Below the pieces are notes generated by a model, which saw only the letters and a program-made list of their open reading frames with translations, searched no databases and was not told the DNA's origin. The translations under genes were made by a program, and so were the position numbers. From Methyloceanibacter sp. (GTDB lineage: Bacteria > Pseudomonadota > Alphaproteobacteria > Rhizobiales > Methyloligellaceae): a stretch of DNA of 64,000 bases. Shown here in pieces: positions 1 to 16,204 of the stretch. The stretch's first letter is position 1. Every line of letters begins with the position of its first letter. The stretch spans positions 22,063 to 86,062 of the forward strand of contig DATAFR010000160.1 of assembly GCA_036257375.1 (NCBI GenBank), written 5' to 3'.

Positions 1-1087
1 TCAATGCGTGGTTGAGCACTTTCCGCATGAGCGAAGGCAGGGGCGCGCCGGCAAGTTGGCGCGGCTTGAGCCAGCGGCAGCGCTCCGGATGGGCCGCACG
101 CTTCGGCACGGCGTCGTGCTCGACCTCGGCGCGATAGACTGAAAGCTCGAGATGGAAATGCGTGAAGGTGTGCCTGACGAGCCCCGGCAGCTTGCGCCAA
201 TCGGCCTTCACCGGGGCATGGTCGCGCACAGACGTCCCGTTGGGTTCGCCCTCCTGCCATGGCGATGACGGAGTCTCGAGCATCCCTCCAAGCAGACCGT
301 TTAGCGGCCGCTCGCGCAACAGCAAGGCGCCATCGGGGCGGATCGCGACGAACGTCACGCCGCGTCTGACCGGCCGCTCACCTCTCTCCTCGCGATACGG
401 GAGCGCTTCGGCGATGCCCTCGGCATCTCCGCGGCAATCGGCCCGCATCGGACAGAGCCCGCAAGCCGGGCGGCGCGGCGTGCAGATGGTGGCGCCGAGA
501 TCCATCAGGCCTTGCGCGAAGTCGCCGGGCCGATCAGTCGGGGTCAGCATCTCCGCGAGCGCCCTGATCTCGGACTTCGCCTCGGGCAGTGGCGTGGTGA
601 CGGCGAAGAGGCGCGCCACGACGCGCTCGATATTGCCGTCGACTGGGGTTGCTCGTTTGCCGAAGGCGATGGCGGCAATGGCCGCGGCGGTATAGTCGCC
701 GATGCCGGGAAGGCTGCGCAATTCGGCTTCGTTTTCGGGGAATTTGCCGCCAAGCTGCTCGGCCACGGCGCGCGCGCAAGCATGCAGATTCCGCGCGCGG
801 GCGTAATAGCCGAGGCCGGCCCAGGCGGCGAGAACCTCGCCAAGCTCTGCCCGCGCCAGCGCATCGACACTCGGCCAACGGCGCAGGAAGAGCTCATAGC
901 GCGGCAACACCGCCTTGACCGTCGTCTGCTGCAGCATGATCTCGCTGAGCCAGACACGATAAGCGTCTTGGGTCTCGCAGGGCTCTGCGCGCCATGGCAA
1001 CCGGCGGCGCTCGCGGTCGTACCAGGCAAGCACGGCATCGGCGATGCTGGCTCTCTCGCGATCTGGCCGCGCCGCGCGCTTCTGCAT
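1..1087 (-). CDS. mutY: A/G-specific adenine DNA glycosylase (3' end runs off the window)
   Basis: Hand translation from ATG 1087: MQKRAARPDRERASIADAVLAWYDRERRRLPWR...YRVWLSEIMLQQ...LGYYARARNL...LPGIGDYTA...CTPRRPACGLC (HhH and 4Fe-4S motifs). No stop before position 1, so it is missing from the ORF track. Confidence 0.95.
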   Translation of the reverse strand, partial: MQKRAARPDRERASIADAVLAWYDRERRRLPWRAEPCETQDAYRVWLSEIMLQQTTVKAVLPRYELFLRRWPSVDALARAELGEVLAAWAGLGYYARARNLHACARAVAEQLGGKFPENEAELRSLPGIGDYTAAAIAAIAFGKRATPVDGNIERVVARLFAVTTPLPEAKSEIRALAEMLTPTDRPGDFAQGLMDLGATICTPRRPACGLCPMRADCRGDAEGIAEALPYREERGERPVRRGVTFVAIRPDGALLLRERPLNGLLGGMLETPSSPWQEGEPNGTSVRDHAPVKADWRKLPGLVRHTFTHFHLELSVYRAEVEHDAVPKRAAHPERCRWLKPRQLAGAPLPSLMRKVLNHAL

Positions 1088-1185
1088 AAAGCCAACTCCT
1101 GCCGCGCTTCTCCCCTTGCCATGCTGTAAGCTCGGCCGAGGCGAAGCAAGCGGGGGGTTCGATCCCTCCACCGTTACGCGGGACC

Positions 1186-1719
1186 ATGGACGATAAGCAA
1201 AGGAGAGATTTGGCGCGCGCGGCGGCCACGGCGCGGCCGATCGGCGCATATGCGGCCGGCGCGCTCGATCCCGCCGCACGCGCCCGCGGCTTCGCCACCA
1301 CATCGCTCCTCAGCGAATGGCCGGCGATCGTCGGCGCCGAGCTTGCGCAATTCACCATGCCCGACCGCGTGGTTTGGCCGCGGCGTCGCGACGATGCCGA
1401 CGATCAGGCCCCGCCGAAGGGTTGGCGCGACGACGGCGCCACGCTTGTGCTCCGCGTCGAAGGCCCGCGCGCCATCGAGGTGCAGCATCGCTCGGCCCAG
1501 ATTCTGGAGCGGGTGAATTCCTATTTCGGCTATCGCGCCATCGCCGACATGCGCATCTTGCAGGCTCCGGTCGCGCGCAAATCAGCGCGTCCGCCGGCCT
1601 CAGAGCCTCCGCTCGACCCCGGCGCGCTCCCCGCGTCCGCAAGCATCGAGGATAGCGGCTTGCGGGGCGCCCTGCTGCGGCTTGGCTCGGCCGCACGCGC
1701 CAAGCTCACAAGGGGTTGA
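1186..1719 (+). CDS. DUF721 / DciA-family protein
   Basis: W..IVG..LA motif, LVLRVEGPRAIEVQH and ERVNSYFGYRAI. Position between mutY and dsbA-smc is usual in this group. Confidence 0.85.
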   Translation: MDDKQRRDLARAAATARPIGAYAAGALDPAARARGFATTSLLSEWPAIVGAELAQFTMPDRVVWPRRRDDADDQAPPKGWRDDGATLVLRVEGPRAIEVQHRSAQILERVNSYFGYRAIADMRILQAPVARKSARPPASEPPLDPGALPASASIEDSGLRGALLRLGSAARAKLTRG

Positions 1720-1805
1720 GGGGCTCTTCTCGCTCTTGCCAGGATGGCGGTGTTTAATGAATGTAGGCCCGGGCCCAAGCGGGCCTCGGGAATCCATTCG
1801 GTGGA

Positions 1806-2639
1806 GTGAAAAGCGTGGCAAAAGGCGAAAAAAAGGCGGCTGCCCAAGCCGGTTCAGGAAAACCGGCAAGCGGCAGCCCGGCCGGCAAGGAAGGGGTGCA
1901 GAGCAAAACCGGTACGCTCATCCTCGGCGCCGTGGCGGCGGCCGTGCTGATCGGCGGCGTCATTTATTGGGCCAGCTCGAACAGCGGCACGAGCGCAACC
2001 GGCGAGAAAAAGGACTCCGATCTTTCCGAGTTGCTGGCGCCCGGTCCCCTGCCCGACATGGCGCTCGGCAATGCCGACGCCCCGAACATTATCGTCGAAT
2101 ACGCCTCGATGACCTGCCCGCATTGCGCGCAGTTCGAAAAGGACGTCTTCCCGGAGCTCAAGACGAAATATGTCGACACCGGCAAGGTCCGCTTCATCTT
2201 CCGCGAGTTCCCGCTCGACGGCCTGGCGGCGCGCGCGTCCATGCTCGCCCGCTGCGCCGGTCCTGACCGCTACTTCCCGATCATCGATGGCCTGTTCCAG
2301 ACGCAACAGTCCTGGGTCGTGCAGGAAGAAGGCATGGAGAAGCTGCTGCAATTCGCCCGCCAGGCCGGTTTCTCCAAGGAGAGCTTCGACAAATGCATGA
2401 ACGACAAGGATCTGTTCAACAAGATCGTCGAGGTGCGTTCGATCGGGCATGAGAAATTCGGCGTCGACTCGACGCCTTCCTTCTTCATCAATGGCAAGCG
2501 GCTGAAGGGCGAGCACGCGCTCAAGGATTTCGAGGCCATGCTCGCGGGCATCGACAAGCCGGCAGCGACGCCTGACGGCGGCGCGACACCGGCGCCCGAG
2601 GGAAGCACGAGCCAGCCCGAGGGAACGCCGGGCCAGTAG
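1806..2639 (+). CDS. DsbA-family thiol-disulfide oxidoreductase, membrane anchored
   Basis: EYASMTCPHC active site, STPSFFING cis-Pro loop, N-terminal hydrophobic segment. Confidence 0.9.
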   Translation: MKSVAKGEKKAAAQAGSGKPASGSPAGKEGVQSKTGTLILGAVAAAVLIGGVIYWASSNSGTSATGEKKDSDLSELLAPGPLPDMALGNADAPNIIVEYASMTCPHCAQFEKDVFPELKTKYVDTGKVRFIFREFPLDGLAARASMLARCAGPDRYFPIIDGLFQTQQSWVVQEEGMEKLLQFARQAGFSKESFDKCMNDKDLFNKIVEVRSIGHEKFGVDSTPSFFINGKRLKGEHALKDFEAMLAGIDKPAATPDGGATPAPEGSTSQPEGTPGQ

Positions 2640-2647
2640 GTACCAGG

Positions 2648-3316
2648 GTGATGTCGCTGCGAGGGCTAAGAGCGTCGCTTCCGATTGCAGTCGCGCTCGC
2701 CCTTTCGGGATGCGGCGGGGGCGCCATGGGACCGGCGCCGCCGATCGACAAGGCGACCTATGTGCCCCCGCAAGCCGAGCTGATGGCGCCGGGACCGCTT
2801 GGCGACGTTTCGATCGGCAAGGCGAATGCGCCGGTCACCGTCATCGAATATGTCTCGCTCACCTGCCCGCACTGCGCCAACTTCCAGAAGCACCTGTTCC
2901 CGCGCGTGAAGAAGGAATATATCGACACCGGCAAGGTGAGGTTCATCGTCCGCGAATTCCCCATCGGACACACCTCGGGCCACGCGGCCATCGCCAATCG
3001 CTGCGCGGGCGAGGACAAATATTTCTTCCTGCTGAACCAGTTCCTGACCCGGCAGCCCGAATGGGTCAGCCAGGAGGTCCGTCCCGACGCCATCTATTCG
3101 GTCGCCAAAGCCAGCGGAATGAGCCGCGAGACGTTTGACAAATGCCTATCGAATCAAACCATTATCGACGGCTTGACGGAGGTGAAGCAGCGGGGGCGGC
3201 AATTCGGCGTGATCGGCACGCCGACCTTCTTCATCAATGGCCGCAAGGCGCAAGGAGAGGTCACCTTCGAAGAGATCAAGGCCATGATCGAGCAGGCGCC
3301 GGCGTCCTCGTCATGA
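2648..3316 (+). CDS. DsbA-family oxidoreductase, predicted lipoprotein
   Basis: EYVSLTCPHC, GTPTFFING, lipobox LSGC. Confidence 0.9.
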   Translation: MMSLRGLRASLPIAVALALSGCGGGAMGPAPPIDKATYVPPQAELMAPGPLGDVSIGKANAPVTVIEYVSLTCPHCANFQKHLFPRVKKEYIDTGKVRFIVREFPIGHTSGHAAIANRCAGEDKYFFLLNQFLTRQPEWVSQEVRPDAIYSVAKASGMSRETFDKCLSNQTIIDGLTEVKQRGRQFGVIGTPTFFINGRKAQGEVTFEEIKAMIEQAPASSS

Positions 3317-3385
3317 CCTTTCGCGGCGCCGCCGCGTGGCCTAAATGCTGCGCGTAAAGTCTTCCACTAAAGAGGCAGAACCAGC

Positions 3386-6300
3386 GTGAAGATCACTCGT
3401 CTTCGCCTTCTCGGATTCAAATCCTTCGTCGAGCCCACCGAGCTCCTGATCGAGCAGGGTCTCACCGGCGTGGTCGGCCCCAACGGCTGCGGCAAGTCGA
3501 ACCTGCTCGAGGCGCTGCGCTGGGCCATGGGCGAGACCTCGTATAAGAGCATGCGCGGCGCGGCCATGGACGACGTGATCTTCGCCGGATCGGAGGCTCG
3601 CCCGGCCCGCAACAGCGCCGAGGTCACGCTGTTCATCGACAATAGGGCGCGCACCGCGCCGGCCGAGTTCAACGACAGCGACGCGCTGGAAGTGACGCGG
3701 CGCATCGAGCGCGAAGCCGGCTCCGCCTACAGGGTCAACGGCAAGGATGCCCGCGCGCGCGACGTGCGGCTCCTGTTCGAGGACGCAGCCACCGGCGCGC
3801 GTTCGCCGGCGCTGGTGCGGCAGGGGCGCATCGGCGAAATCGTCAACGCAGCGCCGCAGGAGCGCCGCCGCGTGCTGGAGGATGCGGCCGGCATCGCAGG
3901 GCTGCATAGCCGCAGGCACGAGGCCGAGCTCCGGCTCAAAGCGACCGAAGCCAATCTCGCCCGCCTCTCCGATCTGATCGGCCAGATCGCATCGCAATTG
4001 CAGTCGATGCGGCGGCAAGCGCGTCAGGCGCAGCGTTATCGCGAAATTTCCGGCAAGATCCGCGAGACCGAGGCGCTGTTGCATCATCTCAATTGGACCG
4101 GCGCTTGCGCCCATGTCGAGCAGGAGGAAGCCTCCTTCCAAGAGGCGCTTGCCCAGGTGGCGCAGGAGACCAAGGCCGAAGGCGAGGCCTTGCGCCAGCA
4201 GGCGGAGGCCGCCGAGAAGCTACAGCCTTTGCGCGACGAGGAGGCCTCGCGCGCGGCGGTGCTGCATCGCCTGAGCGTCGAGCGCGACGCGCTCGAGCGC
4301 GAAGAGGCTCGCGCCAAAGCGCGCCAAGCCGAGCTTGAGACGCGGCTGGCACAGGCCTCGCGCGATCTTGCCCGCGAGGAGGAGCATATCGCGGAGGCCG
4401 AAGGCATCTTGCGCGGGCTTGGCGAAGAGGGCCGGCGCCTTGCCTTGGCAAGCGCGCGCGATCGCGAGGAGCCGCAATTGCGTGAAACCGCGGCACGTGC
4501 CGCGGCCGCTCTTGCCGCCGCGGAAACGGCGCTGAACGAGGCGACGAGCACGCTCGCCAAGGCCAGGGCCGAACGTGAGCGGCTCGTAGCTGAGCAGGCC
4601 GACCTGAGAGCGCGGCTTGTCCGGCTTGACGCGCAAGCAGGCGAGATCGGCGTTGAGCTCGGGCACCGCGAGGCCGAAAGCGAAACCGATAGCGGGCTGA
4701 CCGAGCTGAACGCCGAATTGGCGCGGCTCTCGGCCATAGTGGAAGGGATCGAAGCCGAGCTTACGGCTGCCGAAGCCGAAGAGGAGGAGGCGCGGTTCCA
4801 CGAAGCAAAGGCCCGCGCCCTCGCCGCTTCAGCCAAACTCGTAAGCCAGGAGGTCGAGACCGAGCTTGCAACGCTCATCAAGCTGCTCGCCCCGGCCGGC
4901 GGGGACTGGCCTCCCGTCCTCGATGAGATCACGGTCAATGCAGGCTATGAACTGGCGCTTGCCGCGGCGCTCGGCGACGATCTTGACGCTGCGAGCGACG
5001 AGGCCGCGCCTGCCCATTGGCGGCTCGCGGCGCAGGCTGCATCGGATCCCAGCCTTCCCGAGGGCGCGGTTATCCTCAGCAAATTCGTCAAAGGTCCCAA
5101 GGTTCTTACGCGTCGGCTCGCGCAGATCGGCGTGGTCGATGTTGCGCTGGGCCGCGACTTGCAGTCAGCGCTCGCGCCCGGCCAGAGACTCGTGTCGAAG
5201 GAAGGCGATCTCTGGCGATGGGATGGCTACAGCGTCAAGGCGGGGAGCGCCAGCGCTGCAGGGGCACGCCTGACCGAGAGAAGTCGGCTCGATGCTCTCA
5301 AGGTCGAGAGGTCTACAGCGGAGGCCCACGCCAAGACCGCCGAGGCCGATCTCGCCGAGGCCGTCAGCAGTTTGGAGACTGCCGTACAGAGGACCAAAGC
5401 TCTTCGCCAAAAGGCGAAGGACGCACACGCCGAGCTTGACAGGACGCGCGATGCGATCGCCGCGGCCGAACATGCGGCGCAGGTCTACTCAAAGCAGCTC
5501 GGCGCTCTCGCCGAAGCCCGTTCCAGAACGCAGTCAGCGCAGGACGAGGCGCGCGAGCACGCGGCGAGGATCGAGACGGCCCTGCATGCGCTTGCTCCAC
5601 TTGCGGCGCTCGAAGCAACACTTGAAGCCGCGCAAGCCGAGGCTGGCGCCAGCCGCCAGGCCGCGGCGCGCGCGGAGGCCGCGCTCGAAGGTTTCGAGCG
5701 CGAGCTCCGCTTGCGTCAAGAGCGGATGCAGGCGATCGGCGCCGAGGAAGAACGCTGGCGGAAGCGCATCGCCAATGCGCGCGAGCAGATCCTCACCCTC
5801 CGAGCGCGCGAGGAAGAGACGAGCGCCGACCTCGCCGCACTGGAAAACCTCCCTGCCGAGATCGAGCAGCGTCGTTCCAAGCTGCTCGACGCCATCGCCG
5901 CTGCCGAGCGCCAAAGGGGCAACGCCGCCGACGAGCTCGCTCTGGCCGAGACGGCGTTGAAGGGGCGCGAGAAGGCGTTGCGCGAGGTGCAGGAGCGGCT
6001 GGCGGCTGCACGCGAAGCACGCGCGCGCAACGAAGCGCGGCTCGAAGCGGCGCGCGAGCGCCGCAGCGAGACGGCGCGCGCCATCCGCGATCAACTCGAT
6101 TGCATGCCGGAAGATTGCCTTGTGCTAGCCGGGCTCAAGCCTGGCGCCGCCACTCCGCCGCTCGCGGATGTCGAAGCGCGGCTCTTGAAGCTGAGGGCCG
6201 ATCGCGAGCGGCTCGGCGGCGTCAATCTCCGGGCCGAGGAGGAAGAGGCCGACCTTTCGGCCAAGCTCGAAGAGATGGAGCGCGAGAAGGCCGATGTCGA

Positions 6301-6838
6301 GGAGGCCATCCTCAGGCTGCGGCAAGGTATCACCAATCTCAATCGCGAGGGGCGTAAGCGCCTGCTCGAGGCCTTCGATACCGTAAACGGGCATTTCGGA
6401 CGGTTGTTCAAGACACTGTTCGGCGGCGGCTCTGCCGAGCTGAAGCTGGTCGATTCAGACGATCCGCTCGAATCTGGACTCGAGATCTTCGCTTGCCCGC
6501 CGGGCAAGCGCCTCCAGGCGTTGACGCTGCTCTCGGGCGGCGAGAAGGCGCTGACCGCACTCGCCCTGATCTTCGCCGTGTTCCTGACCAACCCCTCGCC
6601 CATCTGCGTGCTGGACGAGGTGGACGCGCCGCTAGACGACGCCAATGTCGAGCGCTTCTGCCGGTTGATGGAGGAGATGGCGAAGGAGACCGACACGCGC
6701 TTCCTTATTATCACCCACCATCCGCTCACCATGGCGCGCATGAGCCGGCTGTTCGGCGTGACCATGGCCGAGCGCGGCGTCAGCCAGCTCGTCTCGGTCG
6801 ATCTGGAACAGGCCGAGCGCCTGCGCGACGCGAGCTAG
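3386..6838 (+). CDS. smc: Chromosome segregation protein SMC
   Basis: Walker A GPNGCGKSN, long coiled coils, hinge, LSGGEK signature, LDEVDAPLD. Confidence 0.98.
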   Translation: MKITRLRLLGFKSFVEPTELLIEQGLTGVVGPNGCGKSNLLEALRWAMGETSYKSMRGAAMDDVIFAGSEARPARNSAEVTLFIDNRARTAPAEFNDSDALEVTRRIEREAGSAYRVNGKDARARDVRLLFEDAATGARSPALVRQGRIGEIVNAAPQERRRVLEDAAGIAGLHSRRHEAELRLKATEANLARLSDLIGQIASQLQSMRRQARQAQRYREISGKIRETEALLHHLNWTGACAHVEQEEASFQEALAQVAQETKAEGEALRQQAEAAEKLQPLRDEEASRAAVLHRLSVERDALEREEARAKARQAELETRLAQASRDLAREEEHIAEAEGILRGLGEEGRRLALASARDREEPQLRETAARAAAALAAAETALNEATSTLAKARAERERLVAEQADLRARLVRLDAQAGEIGVELGHREAESETDSGLTELNAELARLSAIVEGIEAELTAAEAEEEEARFHEAKARALAASAKLVSQEVETELATLIKLLAPAGGDWPPVLDEITVNAGYELALAAALGDDLDAASDEAAPAHWRLAAQAASDPSLPEGAVILSKFVKGPKVLTRRLAQIGVVDVALGRDLQSALAPGQRLVSKEGDLWRWDGYSVKAGSASAAGARLTERSRLDALKVERSTAEAHAKTAEADLAEAVSSLETAVQRTKALRQKAKDAHAELDRTRDAIAAAEHAAQVYSKQLGALAEARSRTQSAQDEAREHAARIETALHALAPLAALEATLEAAQAEAGASRQAAARAEAALEGFERELRLRQERMQAIGAEEERWRKRIANAREQILTLRAREEETSADLAALENLPAEIEQRRSKLLDAIAAAERQRGNAADELALAETALKGREKALREVQERLAAAREARARNEARLEAARERRSETARAIRDQLDCMPEDCLVLAGLKPGAATPPLADVEARLLKLRADRERLGGVNLRAEEEEADLSAKLEEMEREKADVEEAILRLRQGITNLNREGRKRLLEAFDTVNGHFGRLFKTLFGGGSAELKLVDSDDPLESGLEIFACPPGKRLQALTLLSGGEKALTALALIFAVFLTNPSPICVLDEVDAPLDDANVERFCRLMEEMAKETDTRFLIITHHPLTMARMSRLFGVTMAERGVSQLVSVDLEQAERLRDAS

Positions 6839-6871
6839 CAGAATCCGAGTTTTTTGCCCCTTCCGACTTCC

Positions 6872-6899
6872 TTGACAGGGCGGAATCCCTCACTAAAGT
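6872..6899 (+). promoter_or_regulatory. Putative sigma70 promoter of the atp F0 operon
   Basis: TTGACA (6872-6877), 16-nt spacer, TAAAGT, about 60 nt upstream of atpI. Confidence 0.55.
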
Positions 6900-6959
6900 G
6901 CCGGCCAAGCTTAAGGACCAGCCGGTCCCGAGGGCTCTCCCGGAAATTGAGCGACGCCA

Positions 6960-7346
6960 ATGGCCGGAGCCGAAAATCAGTCCGGCCGCAAGGAGAGCGG
7001 CCGTGACGCCGATAGTATTCGTCGGCGGCTCGATCATCTTGGCGAGCAGCTTGCGGAGGCTCGAGGCCGGCATGACAAGGCGCCAGGCCGAGAGCCGCAC
7101 GGCCAAGGCGCCGCACTCGGTCAGGCGCTCCGGCTTGGCATAGAGCTGGTTGCCGGGGTGGCGGTCGGTGGGTTCATCGGCTGGGCGCTCGACCGTTGGC
7201 TGGGCACCGCGCCCTTCCTGATGGTCGTATTTCTCGGGCTTGGCGCGGCGGCCGGGATCATGAATGTGGTGCGTACTGCCAAGCGCATGCAGGCGGAGGC
7301 ATCGTCGGTGAAGGATCTGCCTAGCGTGCCGGATGACGACGACTAG
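6960..7346 (+). CDS. atpI: ATP synthase protein I (AtpZ/AtpI family)
   Basis: GIELVAGVAVGGFIGWALDRWLGTAP...GAAAG..NV motif, first gene of the F0 operon. Confidence 0.9.
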   Translation: MAGAENQSGRKESGRDADSIRRRLDHLGEQLAEARGRHDKAPGREPHGQGAALGQALRLGIELVAGVAVGGFIGWALDRWLGTAPFLMVVFLGLGAAAGIMNVVRTAKRMQAEASSVKDLPSVPDDDD

Positions 7347-7365
7347 GGATTAGGGGCGTTTCGAA

Positions 7366-8166
7366 GTGATCGAGGCAGCATACGCGGCAGAAGAAGCAGC
7401 AGGACACGCGGCCGAGCATGGCGGCGGCGCCGGCGGCCTGCCCAATCCCATGCATCAGTTCGAGATCAAGCGGATCATCCCGCTCGAGCTGTTCGGCTTC
7501 GACGCCTCCTTCACCAATTCCGCGCTGTTCATGGTGATCGCCGCCTGCGTCATCACCCTCTTCACCGTCTATGCCATGCGCAACCGCGCGCTGGTGCCGT
7601 CGCGGCTGCAATCCGTCGCCGAGCTCTCTTACCAGTTCGTGGCGAATATGGTGCGCGACAATGTCGGCACCGACGGGATGAAATATTTCCCCTTCGTTTT
7701 CACGCTCTTCATGTTCGTGCTCACGCTGAACATGCTGGGTATGCTCCCTTATTCCTTCACCGTGACGAGCCACATCATCGTGACCTTCGCGCTCGCCGCC
7801 TTCATCTTTCTCGGCGTCACGCTGATCGGTTTTTGGAAGCACGGCGCGAAGTTCCTCAAATTCTTCGTGCCCGAGGGCGTGCCCATCGTCATGCTGCCGC
7901 TGCTCGTGGTGATCGAGGTGATCTCTTATCTCACGCGGCCGATCTCGCTCTCGGTCCGGCTGTTCGCCAATATGATGGCCGGCCACACCATGCTGAAAGT
8001 GTTCGGCGCTTTCGTCGTGGCGCTCGGTTTTCTCGGCGGCTGGGCCCCGCTCGCCTTCATGGTGGCTTTCACCGGCCTCGAGATCCTGGTCGCTTTCCTG
8101 CAGGCCTATGTGTTCGCCATCCTCACCTGCATCTATCTCAACGACGCTTTGCATATGCATCATTAG
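7366..8166 (+). CDS. atpB: F0F1 ATP synthase subunit a
   Basis: [33 protein letters not shown]. Confidence 0.97.
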
Positions 8167-8191
8167 TCAACCGCATCAAAGGGAGAGTGAA

Positions 8192-8419
8192 ATGGATCCA
8201 TCAGCAGCAAAATTGATCGGCGCGGGGTTGGCCTCGATCGCGCTTGTCGGCGCCGGCGTCGGCATCGGCACGATTTTCGGCAACTATCTGCAAGGGGCTT
8301 TGCGCAACCCGTCGGCGGCGCCGACGCAGTTCGCCAATCTCCTGCTCGGCTTCGCGCTGGCGGAAGCCACCGGTCTGTTCGGCCTGGTGGTGGCGCTGAT
8401 CATCCTGTTCGTGTTCTAG
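8192..8419 (+). CDS. atpE: F0F1 ATP synthase subunit c (75 aa)
   Basis: ATG 8192 after [21 protein letters not shown]...ALRNP...[10 protein letters not shown]. Confidence 0.97.
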
Positions 8420-8454
8420 ACAGCCAGAACTTTTCCGGCTCGCGGGAAGCGATC

Positions 8455-8940
8455 ATGCCGCAGCTCAATCCGCTCGACTGGGGACCGCAGCTCGTCTGGC
8501 TCCTCATCACGTTCGGCGTCCTCTATTTCCTGATGCTGAAAGTGGCGCTGCCGCGCATCGGCTCGGTGATCGACGCGCGCGCGGCCCGTATCGCCAAGGA
8601 TCTGGCCGACGCGGACAAGCTGAGGCGCAAGACCGAGGAGGCGATCGCGGCTTACGAGCAGGCGCTGGCCGAAGCTAAGCAGAAGGCGCATGCCATCGTC
8701 GATGAGGGCCGCGCCAAGCTGAAGGAAGAGACTGCGGCCGAGCGGGCCCGTCTCGACGCCGAACTTGCCAAGCGCGGAGCCGAAGCCGAAGAGCGCATCA
8801 GGGCGGCCAAGGAATCGGCCATGCGCGATGTGAATGTAGTGGCGGCAGACGTCGCCGCCGACATCGTGCGCCAGTTGATCGGCATCGCGCCCGCCAAGGC
8901 CGAAGTGGAGAAGGCGGTCGCGGCCGCGCGGAAAGACTAG
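8455..8940 (+). CDS. F0F1 ATP synthase subunit b'
   Basis: MPQLNPLDWGPQLVWL start, TM helix plus coiled coil, operon position. Confidence 0.92.
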   Translation: MPQLNPLDWGPQLVWLLITFGVLYFLMLKVALPRIGSVIDARAARIAKDLADADKLRRKTEEAIAAYEQALAEAKQKAHAIVDEGRAKLKEETAAERARLDAELAKRGAEAEERIRAAKESAMRDVNVVAADVAADIVRQLIGIAPAKAEVEKAVAAARKD

Positions 8941-8944
8941 AGCC

Positions 8945-9436
8945 ATGGAATTCATCTTCGAGCCGGAATTCTGGGTCGCGGTATCCTTCTTCCTCTTCGT
9001 GGGCGTCGTGGTCTATCTCGGCGTGCACAAGAAGATCGCCTCTGCCCTCGACGCGAGGGCGGCTGCGATCGCCAGAGAACTCGAAGACGCCAAGCGCTTG
9101 CGGGAGGAGGCCGAGAAAGTCCTCGCCGACTATCGCCGCAAGCAGGGCGACGTGGTCAAGGAAACCAAAGACATCATCGATCTCGCCTCGAAGGAGGCCG
9201 AGATCCTGGCCGCCGAGACACACCGATCGATGAAAGAGCAATTCGACCGGCGCATGAAGCTCGCCGAAGACAAGATCTCACGCGCGGAAGCGGAAGCCTT
9301 ACGCGAGGTGCGAGCCGCTGCCGCGGAAGCCGCCGTGACCGCGGCGCAGACGGTCATCGCGCAGAAGCTCACGCCTGAGACCGCCGACAAGCTCGTCAAG
9401 CAAGGCATCGATGCGCTGAAGGGCAAGCTGAACTAG
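8945..9436 (+). CDS. atpF: F0F1 ATP synthase subunit b
   Basis: EFWVAVSF..F TM helix, LDARAAAIARELEDA coiled coil. Confidence 0.92.
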   Translation: MEFIFEPEFWVAVSFFLFVGVVVYLGVHKKIASALDARAAAIARELEDAKRLREEAEKVLADYRRKQGDVVKETKDIIDLASKEAEILAAETHRSMKEQFDRRMKLAEDKISRAEAEALREVRAAAAEAAVTAAQTVIAQKLTPETADKLVKQGIDALKGKLN

Positions 9437-10683
9437 CCCGGGGTCAGCCAGCGCCCGACTCTGCCCCAGAACGATTCCGAGTCCGCCTCGGGTTCCGCTT
9501 CGGCCGGGGCCGCGCGTTTTTTCCGGTAGTGCGGCTTGGGCTCTCCGGCGAGAAGGCCGCTGTAGATCCAGCCCTTCTTGCCGGTCGAAGGGTCAGTCAC
9601 TTGGACCCATCCCCGCTTGCGGTCGAGGACTGGAAGCTTGGCGCCCTTGGCGACCACGCCGAGCACGGCGGCGGAGGAGGAAGGCCTTTCCCGCAGATTG
9701 ACGAACACCGAGGGCTCGACCGTGCCAAGCCCACTCTCACTATCGTCGGCTTGCCCCAGCGTGTTGGGTTGGACGCCACCCGGCGGGGTGGTCGCGTCTT
9801 GTGTCGTCTGTTCGACACTCTCAAGTTGAGTGTCACTGGCCGGCTCAGGTTTTGCTTCCAGCTCCACGCCCTCACCGCCTGCCGCCTCGGGGCTGACCGC
9901 CCCCGCCGGTGCATCGGTCGTTTCCGGAAGGGCTGCCGTTGCCGCCGGTTCGCTGACCTCGGGCGACGCAACGGCGCCAGCCACGGTGGCGGCCGGCTGG
10001 GGCGCGACTGGTGCGGGCGCTACCGCTAGCAACGTCTCAGCCTCGGAGATGACCTTATCGTCCGGGGCGATCAGCGCGAGGCCGAGCTTGAACTCGCCGC
10101 TCGCGCCGGCCGGCAGAACGAGGTGCAGATCGCCGATCTGATCCGGCTTCAGCATCCATTCGTTCTCGCCAAGGGGGCGGCCTTCGGAAAAATTGCTGGC
10201 TTGCGGCAGCCCCTTTATGGCGATGACGCTGCGAGACGGGACGCCGTCAGTGCCGTCGATGGCGATGGGGAAGCTGACCGTTTCGCCCGCTTTGGCTTCG
10301 ATCTTGGCAGAGGCCGTGAGCACGGCCGATGGAGCTTCGCTCTGCAGCTCAGGAGCTTGCGCTGCCGGCGCCCCGCCCGGCGAGCCGAGCCAAAGGGCGC
10401 CGAGGGCAAGGCTTGGAACCAGCACGGCCAGAACGAGTCCGAAAATCAGCAAGCGCCGCCGGACCGCCGATCGACCTCTCGAAGGGGCCACTTCGCGCGC
10501 GTCAGCGCTCAGAGCAGCCGGCCGAGACGTTTGCGGCAGATCGGCCACGCGCAAAGTTGCTTCCCGCAGATCCGCCGCATGCGCGAAGCGCTGCGCGATC
10601 GGCGCGGGGTTTTCCAAGACGCCGGCGGGATATCTCCCGCTCAACGTCATGACGTCGGCACTGAGCTTTTTGGGTTGCCCCAT
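9433..10683 (-). CDS. Membrane-anchored protein with C-terminal bacterial SH3 domain
   Basis: One TM helix, beta-rich middle domain, Ala/Pro/Glu linker, C-terminal VNLRERPSSSAAVLGVV...GWVQV...GWIYSGLL (SH3b pattern). Confidence 0.75.
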   Translation of the reverse strand: MGQPKKLSADVMTLSGRYPAGVLENPAPIAQRFAHAADLREATLRVADLPQTSRPAALSADAREVAPSRGRSAVRRRLLIFGLVLAVLVPSLALGALWLGSPGGAPAAQAPELQSEAPSAVLTASAKIEAKAGETVSFPIAIDGTDGVPSRSVIAIKGLPQASNFSEGRPLGENEWMLKPDQIGDLHLVLPAGASGEFKLGLALIAPDDKVISEAETLLAVAPAPVAPQPAATVAGAVASPEVSEPAATAALPETTDAPAGAVSPEAAGGEGVELEAKPEPASDTQLESVEQTTQDATTPPGGVQPNTLGQADDSESGLGTVEPSVFVNLRERPSSSAAVLGVVAKGAKLPVLDRKRGWVQVTDPSTGKKGWIYSGLLAGEPKPHYRKKRAAPAEAEPEADSESFWGRVGRWLTPG

Positions 10684-10886
10684 GAAAACACGCTGAACTG
10701 TTAGATTTCCCCCTTCGCCAGCCTAGGGTCTAACAGCCGGGCGGACCGATTTCTGGGCATTAAAGTGGAAACAGCGGGGCACCGATTGCTGCGTCCGGTC
10801 CCCTAAACCCTTGGTTTTATTGCGCCTTGGCGCCAGCCGACGGAGCTCGAACTCTCGCCGCGGAGTCTGCAAGCCCTGAGGACCGC

Positions 10887-12841
10887 TCAGGCCACGAGCG
10901 CGCCGCGTAGTGCCGGAAAGTTCGTGACGATTGTCTCTGCCGGTACGTCTTTAGGCATGAACTCCAGAAGCAATACCGCATCACCATTGGTTTCGAGAAT
11001 GGTGCCTGCCTGCGTGTTCACAACGTAGAAATGCGTCGCATCACGCTCCTCAAGCGCAAACCAAGAGACATTCTGACTCCAGCGCGTGCCCGGCTGCGCC
11101 CGCGTCTCGAGTTGTTCGAGTGCTTGCCGTAGCGCGTCTCGCTGGTAGCGCGCCAACAGCACGAGAAGGTGCTCGCGTGGAATCCAGCCGCTATATTGAT
11201 ACACGTTCGCCTGGCGTTTCATCTCGCCGAACGTGGCGACCAACTCGGTCGCCTGTTGCTGAGTGAGACCGGTCACCACATCATAATCGTAGTAGAGCTC
11301 AAGCACGTTGTCGGGTTTCTCGACAACGTTGGTGACGCCGAAATTTGCCGGGTGTTTCGCAATCGGTGCGTTGTGCTCGAAGGAGAACGTACCGGTTCCT
11401 TCGGAGTGAATAATGTCAGCATGGTCGATGAGAAATTGCGCCGTCTCCAGGGCTTCCTCGCGCGTCTCGGTCGGAAATCCGAAGAAATTGAAAGTATGGT
11501 TCCAAATCCCGGCAGAATGGGCATCGCGCAGGTTCGACAGCATGACACGTTGGGTATTGTTCTTCTTCATGTGGCGCTGCATGCGCTCGTTCGCGGACTC
11601 AAGACCGATATAGAGCGAGCGGAAGCCTATGCCGTGCATGCCGGCGTAGTGCTCCAGCTTGAAATATTTCTCGAACTTGTAAAGGCTGGTAAAAAAGAAT
11701 TTTCCCTTGGGAAATATTTCAGGGAGCTTCTCGAACAGCTTGGGCGGGATCGCTTCATCGTTGAGGGCGAAGTGAGTGACGCCATGGCGACGGTGCAGGT
11801 CTCGACGTCATCGAGCAGCGCCTCCGGACGCCGCATGCGATAGCGATCGCCGTAGATCATGCCGTGGTAGCAGAATGCGCATTTGTCCCAGTAGCACCCC
11901 CGCGTGGATAGAATCGGCAAGACCACCTCGGGCGTGTAGTACTTATCAAGCGAAAGGTCGGAAAAGTCGGGCGTAGGAATCTCGTCCATCGATAGCTGCA
12001 ATCCAGGCCCGGTCGACATGACGCGCTCGCCTTCGACGTAAGTGATGCCGGATATCGACGGATCGAAAGGATTGTCGGCCGCGAGCACTTGTTCAAGCGG
12101 CCGCTCTCCCTCGTATCGCACGATCAAATCGAAATAGCGGCCGAACAGGCGCCGGATGCTGTCCGTGCGGTCGACCAACCGCGAAAACACACTGCCGCCG
12201 ATGAGAATTGGGACGGCGGGGAAGCGCTGCTTGAGAACCGCCCCCAGCGTGAGGCTGGAGAGAATCTGCTCAGTGCCGATGACTGAAATGCCGAAATAGC
12301 GAGGGACCTCCGTAATGGAAGCGACTTTGTCCCGGTAGAACTGGAGAAACGGATTGTCTTCCTCGTTAAGGCAAAACGCGTCGATGGAGGCGAACGAGGC
12401 CAGTACGTTGCTCGTCGACAGCGATGACGTTCCGACGTCGACTATCGGCTCGGCCACCGAGAAGGCGTGAAGCAGGCGCTTGAACGCGGTGACGCTCTTG
12501 TAGAAGTCCTCGACATCGTCGAGGCACTCCCGCCGGAGCAGACGCTTTGCGAGGCGCTCCTTCTCGTCGAAGTCCTTCAGAATTCCCAACGAAACAAGTG
12601 CGTGATTTCGGTAGTCATCGAACTCGCTCGACAGGTTCCGCACGTAAAGTTGGAGCCTCGAGATCGCCCTTGGCAACCTGCGCCGGCTAATAAAGAAGTC
12701 GTAGAACTCGACGTTCCAATCGGACTGGCGGACCGAGTAACCGTTGCCTTGCAGATAGGCCTTCAAAGACGGCGTGCTCAGGAAGGGTTGGAACGGGGAC
12801 CATTGGGGCGGGAAGATGAGATGTATATCAAGCGCGCTCAT
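10887..12841 (-). pseudogene. Cobalamin(B12)-binding-domain radical SAM enzyme with C-terminal RRE-like domain, interrupted by a 1-nt frameshift near 11798
   Basis: AAGGAGG RBS then ATG 12841. B12-domain pattern FGISVIGTEQ...ILIGGS, RYEGE, PTPDF, RGCYWDKCAFC (CxxxCxxC). The rSAM core continues in the other frame: LHRRHGVTHFALNDEAIPP...YIGLES...FFGFPTET. One extra C at GAGAC^CTG joins both frames into about 650 aa. Confidence 0.9.
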
Positions 12842-12908
12842 ATGCACGCCTCCTTGTGCCCTCCACGGCCCGGGCGTGGGACGCTTTCAGGCAATGGCTG
12901 GCAAAAAG

Positions 12909-13292
12909 CTAAGCAGGCTTGCCGCTGCGCCGCGCCGGAGTTTGCGTCGTGCCTTGGTTTTGGTTCTGGTTGTCCATGACCCCCCTCCTCGCCCGGAGCG
13001 AGCAGAACCTTCGGATGTTTTCCAAGGCCGCAGGCTTCATATTCATCAAGTCTTCGAGCTTGCCCTGGTTTTGGTTCTGATTGTCGTCTGCGCCCTCCTC
13101 TGCGCGTGCAAAACCAATTCCCAAGTTGCGGAGAATCTCCGGCTTCATGGCCGCCATCTCTTCAAGCCCGCCTTGGTTCTGGTTTTGATTGTCGGCCAGA
13201 GCGAACTCTCCCGGAAGCGCGCTTTAGAGTTGGCGCACTAGCTCCGGCTGGATCTGGTCTTTCAACAGCTTGAGGAGGGAATTCTTATCCAT
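12909..13292 (-). CDS. Putative multi-core RiPP precursor peptide (three DNQNQNQG cores) with in-frame TAA at codon 23
   Basis: GGAGG then ATG 13292: MDKNSLLKLLKDQIQPELVRQL*SALPGEFALADNQNQNQGGLEEMAAMKPEILRNLGIGFARAEEGADDNQNQNQGKLEDLMNMKPAALENIRRFCSLRARRGVMDNQNQNQGTTQTPARRSGKPA*. Co-oriented, ending 68 nt upstream of the rSAM start. The ORF track shows only the last 82 aa (12909-13157). Confidence 0.75.
12951..13193 (-). repeat. Three 24-nt imperfect direct repeats encoding DNQNQNQG, period 108/111 nt
   Basis: Copies at 13170-13193, 13062-13085 and 12951-12974: GACAATCAAAACCAGAACCAAGGC / GACAATCAGAACCAAAACCAGGGC / GACAACCAGAACCAAAACCAAGGC. Confidence 0.95.
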
Positions 13293-13376
13293 GACGCGTA
13301 CCTCCAGCGTTCCGCGAGAGCGGCGCGACTGCACAACAATGGATCTCGGGAATTCCCAGATAATCCTGTACCTACC

Positions 13377-13403
13377 ACATCTTTGGTTGTACAAACAAGA
13401 TGT
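13377..13403. promoter_or_regulatory. Imperfect AT-rich palindrome upstream of the precursor gene, possible operator
   Basis: ACATCTTTGGTTGTACAAACAAGATGT, centred on GTAC with ACATCTT/AAGATGT arms. Confidence 0.35.
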
Positions 13404-13427
13404 TCAATCACCGCGTGGGGTTCGAGG

Positions 13428-14060
13428 CTAACCCGCATTGGGGACGTTGCGATCGAAAGCGACGAAGACCTTGTAGTCCTCGGGTCTTGTGCCGACCACG
13501 ATAGGAAAGGCGATTTCCCGCACCATGGAGAAATAGCCGGCGGGGCCGCCGGCGGGGACGGTCGTGGTGATCTTCATCTTGTCGGTGGCGAGTGTATTTC
13601 GCTGGGCCCCATCGACGCGGATATTCACGCCGAGCGTTACCGTGCCCGGTCCACCTTTAGGCCCGAGCAGAATGCGCCCAGCGAAGCCATATTTGACGAC
13701 GACGCGATCCGAATAGAGTTGGCATTCGCGTGCCATCTTGGTGATCTCGCCGCGATGCACGATCGAGTTTGATTCCCCGACATGGCCAGGCTCGTAGACG
13801 GTGAGCAGCCGGTCGCGCGGCCAGGCCACGACTTGCGGGCAATGCGTGCTCGCGCCGGAGGGGAGATCAGTCCCAGTATCGGCCTTGGCCGTCTCGAGCA
13901 GCCTGTCCTCGTTGACGGCCGAGGCGGATTTGTCCTCGTCGCCCGATTTGAAAGGATTCGAGATCCTGGAGACGGCGCAGCCCGAGGCAAACACAGCGAT
14001 GGCGATGAGCCCGGCGAAGGCGCATGGAGCTAGCCACCAAAGATCGCCGGCACGCTTCAC
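13428..14060 (-). CDS. Conserved hypothetical lipoprotein
   Basis: Lipobox FASGC, CPQV...EITKMARECQ Cys pair, divergent from ispH. Confidence 0.7.
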   Translation of the reverse strand: MKRAGDLWWLAPCAFAGLIAIAVFASGCAVSRISNPFKSGDEDKSASAVNEDRLLETAKADTGTDLPSGASTHCPQVVAWPRDRLLTVYEPGHVGESNSIVHRGEITKMARECQLYSDRVVVKYGFAGRILLGPKGGPGTVTLGVNIRVDGAQRNTLATDKMKITTTVPAGGPAGYFSMVREIAFPIVVGTRPEDYKVFVAFDRNVPNAG

Positions 14061-14078
14061 CTGATCCCCGTCCTCGGC

Positions 14079-14107
14079 TTGACATGCCAGGCATCCCCGC
14101 CTGATAT
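14079..14107 (+). promoter_or_regulatory. Putative sigma70 promoter for ispH-thrB-rnhA
   Basis: TTGACA (14079-14084), 17 nt, TGATAT (14102-14107). Confidence 0.6.
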
Positions 14108-14245
14108 GCCGGCTCGATGTAAGAATTGCTTTGTAATGCCGTGAGTTGCCGGCTTTTTTCTGTTGCGGGCCAAACTATCCGTACTCGTCGGGCGCGACAA
14201 GACTAGACTGCTGGCGGCTGGAATAACTTTTTCTCCGGGACCACG

Positions 14246-15238
14246 ATGACCGGCTCGATCAAGCCCAATGGGAGCCAGGCGGACCGCCCTCCGCTCACCA
14301 TCTATCTGGCGGCCCCGCGCGGCTTCTGCGCCGGCGTCGACCGGGCCATCCAGATCGTCGAGCTTGCGCTCGCCAAATATGGCGCGCCCGTCTATGTGCG
14401 CCATGAAATCGTCCATAACCGTTACGTGGTGGAGAGCCTCAAGGCCAAGGGCGCCATCTTCGTGGAGGAATTGGACGAAATCCCGGACACCGACGCGCCA
14501 ATCGTATTTTCGGCCCATGGCGTACCTAAAGCCGTGCCGGAAGCCGCCAGGCGGCGGCGGATGTTCGTGCTCGATGCCACCTGCCCGCTCGTCTCCAAGG
14601 TGCATGTCGAAGCCGAGCGCCAGCACGCCGAGGGCCGCGAGATCCTCTTGATCGGACATGCAGGCCATCCCGAGGTGATCGGCACCACCGGGCAATTGCC
14701 GGAAGGCGCGGTGCATCTGATCGAGACCGCCCAAGACGCGCGGGCGTTCACCCCGCGCGATCCGGACAGGCTCGCGGTGATCACCCAGACCACCCTTTCG
14801 GTCGACGACACCAAGGAGATCGTGAACGTGCTGAAAGCGCGCTTCCCACGCATGATCACGCCGCGCAAGGACGATATCTGCTACGCCACCACCAACCGTC
14901 AAGAGGCGGTGAAGCACATCGCGCCCGCTTGCGACCGCATGATCGTGGTCGGCTCGCCCAACAGCTCCAATTCGCTCCGCCTGGTCGAGGTCGCCGAACG
15001 TGCCGGCTGCGCCTACGCGGTCTTGATCCAGCGCGCGGCGGAGATCGACTGGGACGCCTTTACCGGCATCAGCCGGCTCGGCATCACCGCCGGCGCGTCT
15101 GCGCCCGAAGTCTTGGTCGACGAGATCATCGATGCCTTCAAGACACGATACGCTGCGACGGTGGAGACCATCACCACAGCGGAAGAAAGCATCGCTTTCA
15201 AGCTGCCGCGCGAGCTCAGAGAGATGCCGGCGCTCTAG
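14246..15238 (+). CDS. ispH: 4-hydroxy-3-methylbut-2-enyl diphosphate reductase
   Basis: [39 protein letters not shown]. Confidence 0.98.
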
Positions 15239-16204
15239 ATGGCTGTCTACACCGACGTCTCTGACGAGGAGCTCGAAGCCTTCATCGAAAGCTATGCGGT
15301 CGGCGCGCTGACCTCGTTCAAGGGCATCGCCGAGGGCGTCGAGAACTCGAACTATCTCGTCCACACCGAAAGCGGGCGCTATATCCTCACGCTCTACGAG
15401 AAGCGGGTGAAGCGCGAGGACCTGCCCTATTTCCTCGCGCTGATGGAGCATCTCGCCTCGCGCCGCATCTCTTGCCCGCTCCCGGTCAAGGATCGCCAAG
15501 GCCGCACGCTGAAGGAGCTTGCCGGGCGTCCTGCAGCGCTGATCACCTTCCTCGAAGGCTTGTGGGTGCGACGGCCGAACATCGAGCATTGCGCTGGGCT
15601 CGGCGATGCGCTCGCGCATTTCCACCTCGCCGGCGCCGATTTCAACATGTTTCGGGCAAACAGCCTGTCCCTGCCCGGCTGGCGCGCGCTGTTCGCCTCC
15701 ATCGGCGCGGGCGCCGACAAGGTCAAGACGGGGCTTTCAGGCGTGATGGAGAAGGAGCTGCGTCATCTGGAAGAGACTTGGCCCGAGGATTTGCCGCAAG
15801 GCGTAATCCATGCCGATCTCTTCCCCGATAATGTGTTCTTCCTCGGCGACAAAGTGTCGGGGCTGATCGACTTCTATTTCGCCTGCAACGACATGCTGGC
15901 TTACGACGTCGCGGTCTGCCTCAATGCCTGGTGCTTCGAGACGGACGGAAGCTTCAACATCACCAAGGCGCGGGCGTTGCTCCAGGCCTACGAGGGCGTG
16001 CGTGCTTTGACCAAGCCCGAGCTCGACTGGCTTCCCACGCTCGCGCGCGGCGCGGCACTCCGCTTCCTGTTGACCCGCACCTACGATCTCATCAACACGG
16101 ACGCGAACGCGCTGGTAAAGACCAAGGACCCCAACGAATATCTGCGCAAGCTTCGATTCCACCAGCGGGTCAAGTCCTATCGCGACTACGGTCTTGGGAC
16201 GTGA
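15239..16204 (+). CDS. thrB: Homoserine kinase type II
   Basis: [35 protein letters not shown]. Confidence 0.96.

Follow-up and report, generated by a model that had tools for sequence, protein, structure and literature searches.

A putative radical SAM peptide-modification system with asparagine/glutamine cores, conserved across phyla and preserved as a relic in Methyloceanibacter

We analyzed a 64,000-nucleotide stretch of DNA from Methyloceanibacter sp. (contig DATAFR010000160.1; hereafter the window), in which an initial annotation had pointed to two genes, one encoding a small protein with three DNQNQNQG repeats and the other a radical S-adenosylmethionine (SAM) enzyme. Our comparative data indicate that the two genes belong to a conserved and previously undescribed radical SAM system of the type that produces peptides synthesized by the ribosome and modified post-translationally (RiPPs), and that the instance in the window is a relic. 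We are fairly confident that it represents a horizontally acquired two-gene peptide-modification cassette that was recently inactivated. On the basis of the homologous loci described below, it is very likely that the enzyme and the protein with the asparagine/glutamine (N/Q) run form an enzyme-substrate pair.

Pairing of the enzyme with N/Q peptides across homologous loci

As the initial annotation had described, the open reading frames (ORFs) of the window place two co-oriented minus-strand genes in the interval between an SH3-domain gene and a lipoprotein gene, with the precursor gene upstream and the enzyme gene downstream. Their features are as follows.

12909-13292, minus strand: precursor pseudogene of 127 codons, built from three repeats of recognition helix, linker and DNQNQNQG core (translation; homology to intact relatives)
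13170-13193, minus strand: core 1, DNQNQNQG
13062-13085, minus strand: core 2, DNQNQNQG
12951-12974, minus strand: core 3, DNQNQNQG
10887-12841, minus strand: radical SAM enzyme pseudogene, about 650 amino acids (Pfam, homologues, AlphaFold2 model of a homologue)
11870-11896, minus strand: Cx4Cx2C cluster motif CYWDKCAFC (in RGCYWDKCAFC), not the canonical Cx3Cx2C
11427-11911, minus strand: radical SAM core domain, cut by the frameshift (Pfam PF04055; E = 9e-16 over residues 313-474 of the read-through protein)
10890-11093, minus strand: C-terminal 68-amino-acid domain with a predicted β1-β2-β3-α1-α2-α3 order, a topology like that of a RiPP recognition element (RRE) (AlphaFold2 model of the tail alone)

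The precursor frame begins at the ATG at 13292 and translates as MDKNSLLKLLKDQIQPELVRQL*SALPGEFALADNQNQNQGGLEEMAAMKPEILRNLGIGFARAEEGADDNQNQNQGKLEDLMNMKPAALENIRRFCSLRARRGVMDNQNQNQGTTQTPARRSGKPA, where the asterisk is an in-frame stop. All three copies of DNQNQNQG share this frame; the ATG-started ORF at 12909-13157 covers just two of them, and the third lies upstream, past an in-frame TAA. The precursor had no Pfam or NCBIfam match, and hence no NHLP or Nif11 leader was detected. Neither the core motif pattern elsewhere nor a second copy of the precursor or the enzyme was found in the host genome, which is a draft of 165 contigs. The enzyme of ∼650 amino acids that had been proposed, including its RGCYWDKCAFC motif, was recovered by reading through two minus-strand ORFs over which the gene is split (11627-12847, 406 amino acids; 10887-11639, 250 amino acids). 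Its likely start is the ATG at 12841, with AAGGAGG seven bases ahead.

Do the two genes travel together elsewhere? Intact enzyme homologues of ∼650 amino acids are numerous (73 to 36% identical to the window enzyme), and the enzyme's motif occurs at no fewer than 589 genomic loci. Inside the N/Q-associated enzyme clade, whose members are at least 36% identical to the window enzyme, we read the upstream DNA at 25 loci. A small co-oriented ORF with an Asn/Gln run was present directly upstream at all 25. It was of a triple- or double-core form at eight loci (L014, L015, L017, L018, L020, L027, L116, and L117), a poly-Q or poly-N form with a signal peptide at seven (L021 to L026 and L118), and a single-core form at nine (L028 to L034, L036, and L037), the remaining one being the duplicate Afifella locus L019. 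The initial annotation had proposed that the DNA upstream of homologues be inspected for NQ peptides, a consistent lack of which would speak against the link; we found the opposite, with an NQ-repeat ORF beside every close homologue and poly-Q, poly-N, or mixed N/Q runs beside more distant ones.

The form of the precursor changed with distance from the window enzyme. Homologues of 63 to 73% identity (Afifella, Ruegeria, Phaeobacter, an uncultured alphaproteobacterium, and metagenome contigs) all had an ORF of 122 to 135 amino acids with three DNQNQNQG copies and spacers matching those of the window; intact precursors of this length stand directly upstream of the enzyme in L014, L015, L017, L018, L020, L027, and L116. 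At 50 to 54% identity, the precursors were triple- or double-core (L116 and L117), signal-peptide poly-Q (six Myxococcaceae loci), or signal-peptide poly-N (L118). At 36 to 40% identity (Actinomycetota, Acidobacteriota, and other Pseudomonadota), they were single-core, with a common leader, 'N(L/F)(K/R)IAELVK..P.DL..IL....SLL', followed by Q9, an N-rich run, or a mixed N/Q run. About 60 homologues from Nitrospinota and Dehalococcoidales (31 to 34% identity) had no N/Q ORF, with the single exception of L035 (Dehalococcoidia), and their similarity to the window enzyme stopped near residue 573, ahead of the C-terminal tail. In a maximum-likelihood tree of the enzymes, the N/Q-associated members formed one clade with 100/100 support and precursor type tracked the tree; among the seven sampled sister-clade rows (Nitrospinota/Dehalococcoidales), only L035 had an N/Q ORF. 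A search from the precursor side returned 69 precursor clusters, mostly of 123 to 136 amino acids, and several of these share contigs with enzyme matches. This conservation, together with the absence of the motif pattern from the rest of the host genome and from 400 sampled genomes of the same class, shows that the repeats did not arise by chance.

The peptides themselves are under constraint. DNQNQNQG was retained in 19 of 21 cores (seven loci), the N/Q positions of core 2 were invariant in the precursor family alignment, and DNA differences in the cores fell almost exclusively at synonymous third positions, which shows that the peptide is translated and under strong selection. A P-x-x-(L/V/I) helix motif occurs 18 to 22 residues ahead of the run in nearly all precursor subtypes and is repeated before each core in the triple-core form; the recognition helix reads '(L/M)KPxxLRx(L/I)' or, at the N terminus, 'LxPE(L/V)xxQ(L/I)'. 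The arrangement is the one by which RiPP systems are recognized: a short precursor gene beside the enzyme gene, in which a conserved core is set apart from a conserved recognition region. Beyond the two genes, the genomic neighborhoods are unrelated, and the pair is the only conserved unit across at least six phyla.

Several of these loci have features of their own. In L021 to L026 (Myxococcus spp., Myxococcaceae; ∼3460-3830 in each locus), enzymes of 52% identity accompany precursors of 90 to 110 amino acids that combine a signal peptide with a 'SRRTIRAL' twin-arginine-like stretch, a Q9 to Q11 run, and a C-terminal 'KPVMLQSLVADLG' helix; an FtsX/MacB-type permease of 817 to 876 amino acids adjoins the enzyme on the opposite strand. 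This organization suggests an exported subtype. In L118 (JGI 3300053216 contig, 137-10107), the precursor has a signal peptide and a run of seven Asn, with genes for a membrane fusion protein, an ATP-binding cassette (ABC) ATPase, and MacB/FtsX upstream and an Amidase gene and an FmdA/AmdA formamidase-like gene downstream; the presence of amidases beside a poly-carboxamide peptide may be meaningful. L037 (from a Burkholderiales metagenome-assembled genome, 2088-2240) pairs an enzyme of 37% identity with a double-glycine-type leader, '...LSDEALDQVAGG', and then a short core, VDINTNNRM, with an ABC-transporter fragment alongside, and looks like a bacteriocin-style export variant of the N/Q peptide family. 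The Nitrospinota and Dehalococcoidales homologues (L038 to L097) form a large sister enzyme clade, often with two copies per genome (e.g., OZ253496.1 and OZ252246.1). In L014 (Afifella sp. H1R, 11585-13584), cobT (DBI_PRT) and cobS lie ∼3.5 kb downstream of the intact cassette, which may be coincidence.

Enzyme fold and C-terminal tail

The window protein scored 58.9 bits against Pfam PF04055 (Radical_SAM; cutoff, 29.5), placing it in the radical SAM superfamily. As a full-length model we used an AlphaFold2 prediction of the intact homologue P0003, which is 72% identical to the window enzyme (predicted local distance difference test score [pLDDT], 92; predicted template modeling score, 0.91). 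The model consists of a Rossmann-like N-terminal domain of the cobalamin type carrying a helical insertion of ∼130 residues, a radical SAM barrel, and a C-terminal β1-β2-β3-α1-α2-α3 module. Foldseek searches of the PDB with this model were headed by MgmA (9ccb; E = 6.5e-16) and OxsB (E = 9.5e-16), followed by TsrM and TokK and then by AprD4 and MiaB, although identity to the top match, MgmA, was only 16%. A profile search of PDB sequences likewise matched OxsB, MgmA (9ccb), CysS, and TokK. By these models, the fold class of the enzyme is that of the cobalamin-dependent radical SAM enzymes, and the enzyme may use cobalamin.

The three cysteines of the cluster motif are the only invariant cysteines among 40 enzyme homologues, which argues against SPASM-type auxiliary clusters; the extra conserved cysteines of SPASM/twitch maturases were absent from this set. 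The best-scoring curated NCBIfam was TIGR03975, the RiPP maturation radical SAM C-methyltransferases, to which PoyB and PoyC of the polytheonamide pathway belong (89.8 bits; cutoff, 281.85), with model positions 139-464 of 606 aligned. The second best was ApyD (NF050148; 77.4 bits; cutoff, 750). Below it ranked generic families of B12 radical SAM enzymes, and TIGR04014, the methyl-coenzyme M reductase glutamine C-methyltransferase, reached 43.4 bits (cutoff, 360).

The last 68 residues of the window enzyme were also folded together with 30 homologous tails, giving a model with a pLDDT of 92.8 and a β3α3 topology. By Foldseek, it matched CteB and TbiB1 best in the PDB; both proteins contain an RRE, and the TbiB1 structure includes the leader peptide. 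A role of the tail as an RRE is plausible on this model.

An inserted island and its decay

The cassette lies on an island that interrupts a locus continuous in the closest same-genus genome.

10788-13427, no strand: inserted 2.64-kb island holding the cassette (empty site and GC content)
9433-10683: SH3-domain gene, on one side of the cassette
13428-14060: lipoprotein gene, on the other side
14246-15238: ispH

The lipoprotein and SH3 genes are direct neighbors in that genome (L112, G012), where ∼82 bp stand in place of window positions 10788-13427 and the flanks align at 9002-10787 and 13428-14210. The GC content of the island is 0.53 to 0.60, compared to 0.63 to 0.68 in the flanks. No close enzyme homologue was found in 24 same-genus genomes, and the core DNA pattern was absent from 400 sampled genomes of the same class. 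On the basis of the empty site, the low GC content, and these absences, the island was acquired horizontally. Its ends showed no convincing terminal direct or inverted repeats of the kind that mark mobile elements, and a promoter and terminator scan gave nothing beyond shuffled expectation. A 522-amino-acid ORF antisense to ispH (14057-15625, minus strand) looks spurious, as is common in GC-rich DNA.

The cassette does not work in this host. Neither window gene yields a full product: the precursor contains a nonsense codon and an out-of-frame spacer, and the enzyme gene has lost one base.

13224-13226, minus strand: in-frame TAA separating the first unit from the rest (Ser, Glu, or His codon in relatives)
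12982-13009, minus strand: out-of-frame stretch in spacer 3 with two compensating indels at its bounds (comparison with contig L099)
11797-11800, minus strand: 1-base loss splitting the enzyme gene (translation of both frames; extra base at 11799 in L101)
12630-12724, minus strand: segment of ∼96 bp, in frame, missing from contigs L098, L099, and L100, with loss of ∼32 residues of the helical insertion

In spacer 3, the window reads 'RRFCSLRARRG' where the family has 'SVLLAPGEE', and the alternative frame of the window gives 'VLLAPGEE', in agreement with relatives. Compared to the window, contig L099 has one more base at 13009 and four fewer G at 12982-12985. We considered that GAGGAGG, which stands before cores 2 and 3 and is read there in different frames, might be a fossil ribosome-binding site, and rejected this idea since the ancestral frame, restored in L099, encodes the conserved 'GEE' before the core at both places. 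Near 11799 in the enzyme gene, 'LLDDVE' goes on in the -1 frame as 'DLHRRHGVTHFALNDEA' / 'DLHRRHGVTHFALNDEAIPP...'. L101, a relative of 84% DNA identity at the same locus (SH3 homologue downstream), has the extra base and reads through as 'DVESLHSRHGV'; it has a 5-base loss of its own near the 3' end. Over 273 clean codons of the enzyme gene, synonymous divergence (dS) was 0.91 and the ratio of nonsynonymous to synonymous divergence (dN/dS) was 0.057, from which we conclude that the gene was constrained until recently. The inactivations are thus recent and independent.

Could the lesions instead be assembly or sequencing errors in a cassette that functions in the living organism? The genome is a draft, one lesion falls within the G-run at 12982-12985, and one other contig has this spacer intact. 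However, the enzyme frameshift recurs in the near-identical contigs L098, L099, and L100, assembled independently from three other samples with two pipelines, and the TAA recurs in L098 and L099, the two of these that cover its position. The frameshift site is not a homopolymer, all three contigs also have the ∼96-bp deletion, and the diverged relative has its own, different frameshift. One of the three, L099, in which the third spacer is intact, also has a ∼174-bp deletion at window positions 10892-11064. We therefore regard errors as very improbable and the lesions as in all likelihood genuine. A programmed -1 frameshift or stop read-through was rejected, as no slippery heptamer occurs at the enzyme frameshift site, the ORF is continuous in relatives, further lesions and deletions occur alongside, and the lesion of a related population is a different one. 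Decay through absence of cobalamin metabolism was not supported either, since the host genome encodes cobS and a MetH-type B12 domain.

Proposed chemistry and relation to known systems

How might the pair work? In intact relatives, gene 1 encodes a precursor of ∼125 amino acids with three units, each made of an amphipathic recognition helix, a linker of ∼18 to 22 residues, and DNQNQNQG, and gene 2 a class-B-type radical SAM enzyme of ∼650 amino acids. We propose that each unit is docked by its recognition helix on the C-terminal domain and that the fixed linker length puts the Asn/Gln run into the active site. There, a 5'-deoxyadenosyl radical would take hydrogen from an sp3 carbon of Asn or Gln and methylcobalamin would supply the methyl group, and the cycle would recur down the run and in each of the three units. 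By analogy with related enzymes, our best guess is iterative C-methylation of Asn/Gln, at slightly less than even chances. Asp and Gly, which the initial annotation had also named as candidate residues, are unlikely targets because the poly-Q and poly-N variants do not conserve them; the central proposal of that annotation, a compact RiPP-like pair in which a cobalamin-type enzyme acts on the repeated Asn/Gln core, is strongly supported by the pairing.

Several observations weigh against this reading of the cassette. The cobalamin-binding pattern noted initially agrees with the fold matches, but PF02310 (B12-binding) reached only 19.5 bits on the window protein, under the 32.1 cutoff, although it is precomputed as present on several homologues. 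The RRE-like character of the tail holds for its topology and not for its similarity scores: the matches to CteB and TbiB1 are nonsignificant (E = 0.23 to 0.8; TM-score, 0.34 to 0.42), and the PqqD Pfam model had no match in 10 tails at E ≤ 10. The enzyme lies below the curated cutoff of every named NCBIfam family, and AprD4, among its fold matches, has a related fold and does not methylate. As had been stated initially, no protease, transporter, or immunity gene adjoins the window cassette; the window and the alphaproteobacterial cassettes have neither a leader protease nor an exporter, which places release of the peptide in doubt, and ABC or MacB-type transporters adjoin only some subtypes (L037, L118, and Myxococcus). 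Finally, the support for the lesions comes from independent assemblies.

We weighed two alternatives. The pairing may stand and the chemistry differ, with the enzyme carrying out a cross-link (C-C or C-N), a rearrangement, or an oxidation on the carboxamide run, with or without cobalamin. Enzymes of the cobalamin type also perform ring contraction (OxsB), cyclization (BchE), and C-P or C-S bond formation, as listed in the ApyD paper; OxsB and AprD4 are among the best fold matches, the score against the C-methyltransferase family TIGR03975 is far under its cutoff, and the unusual Cx4Cx2C motif and large helical insertion set the enzyme apart. On the other hand, the characterized peptide-modifying members of the fold class (PoyB/C, ApyD, MgmA/QCMT, and Mmp10) are all C-methyltransferases, a specific cross-link would have no obvious partner in a poly-Q or poly-N core, and auxiliary-cluster cysteines are not conserved. 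We consider such chemistry unlikely, while giving it some weight. We give hardly any credence to the view that the small ORF is not a substrate at all, being a partner or regulatory protein or unrelated low-complexity sequence, and that the enzyme's target is a small molecule or lipid, as with the HpnJ, BchE, and PhpK relatives. These three do appear among the NCBIfam matches (E ∼1e-14), protease and exporter are absent, and an ORF of ∼125 amino acids is large for a RiPP precursor. Against this view, the two genes alone are conserved over unrelated contexts, precursor type follows the enzyme tree, the feature common to the subtypes is an N/Q run at a fixed distance from the helix motif, and the enzyme clade without an N/Q ORF also has no homology to the C-terminal tail.

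If the enzyme-substrate reading is correct, what would it mean? To our knowledge, few peptide-modifying enzymes target Asn and Gln alone. With pure Asn/Gln cores, radical SAM peptide chemistry would gain a substrate logic of a new kind and probably also a new type of product, which might be C-methylated poly-carboxamide peptides or modified polar-zipper segments. We lean modestly toward seeing here a phylum-spanning peptide class with pure Asn/Gln cores (DNQNQNQG repeats, poly-Q, and poly-N) whose carboxamides are modified in a new way by a distinct Cx4Cx2C cobalamin-type enzyme and in which, in multi-core forms, each core has its own helix at a 'ruler' distance. One enzyme and one substrate make up this minimal system, and intact pairs in the culturable Afifella marina DSM 2698, Ruegeria arenilitoris, Phaeobacter sp. 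SH40, and Myxococcus spp. make its chemistry testable. The reiterated helix-linker-core units lend themselves to asking how the distance to an active site is measured by a recognition domain. The window copy documents fast decay after horizontal acquisition, with independent lesions in related populations despite strong purifying selection until recently.

The peptide family had not been recognized in the initial annotation, and a literature search on Asn/Gln-core RiPPs, on B12 radical SAM enzymes with Asn/Gln, and on TIGR03975 found no published description of it. We place the system within the known radical SAM RiPP type as a novel variant because it fails every curated cutoff, has no known leader type, and has cores on which we found no publication. 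The nearest characterized relatives by curated family are PoyB and PoyC, class B enzymes that iteratively C-methylate many residues of one precursor. The cluster motif of PoyC, Cx7Cx2C, is also noncanonical (PMC11285071). The window enzyme differs in its Cx4Cx2C motif and in that only its central part aligns to TIGR03975. Unlike the polytheonamide pathway, the N/Q cassette has no epimerase, N-methyltransferase, or protease, and its cores consist solely of Asn and Gln; unlike proteusins, its precursors have no NHLP or Nif11 leader match.

ApyD, a B12 radical SAM enzyme with an RRE from the aminopyruvatide cluster of Burkholderia thailandensis, converts a residue of a ribosomal peptide into (2S,3R)-β-methyl-Tyr by C-methylation. 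It methylates one Tyr within a five-enzyme cluster, whereas the N/Q cassette has one enzyme and its proposed target is a carboxamide run. MgmA/QCMT, the top structural match, belongs to the cobalamin radical SAM enzymes and methylates a carbon of Gln within a polypeptide, methyl-coenzyme M reductase; it differs in its length of 417 amino acids, its lack of a C-terminal β3α3 domain, and its target, which is just one Gln in an already folded subunit of a methanogen enzyme.

Cyanobactin and microviridin precursors carry several identical cores per precursor with conserved spacers between them, and the N/Q precursors share such repeated cores with these multi-core RiPPs. The N/Q family differs in that no processing protease is encoded near the cassette and in that each core seems to have its own recognition helix at a fixed distance.

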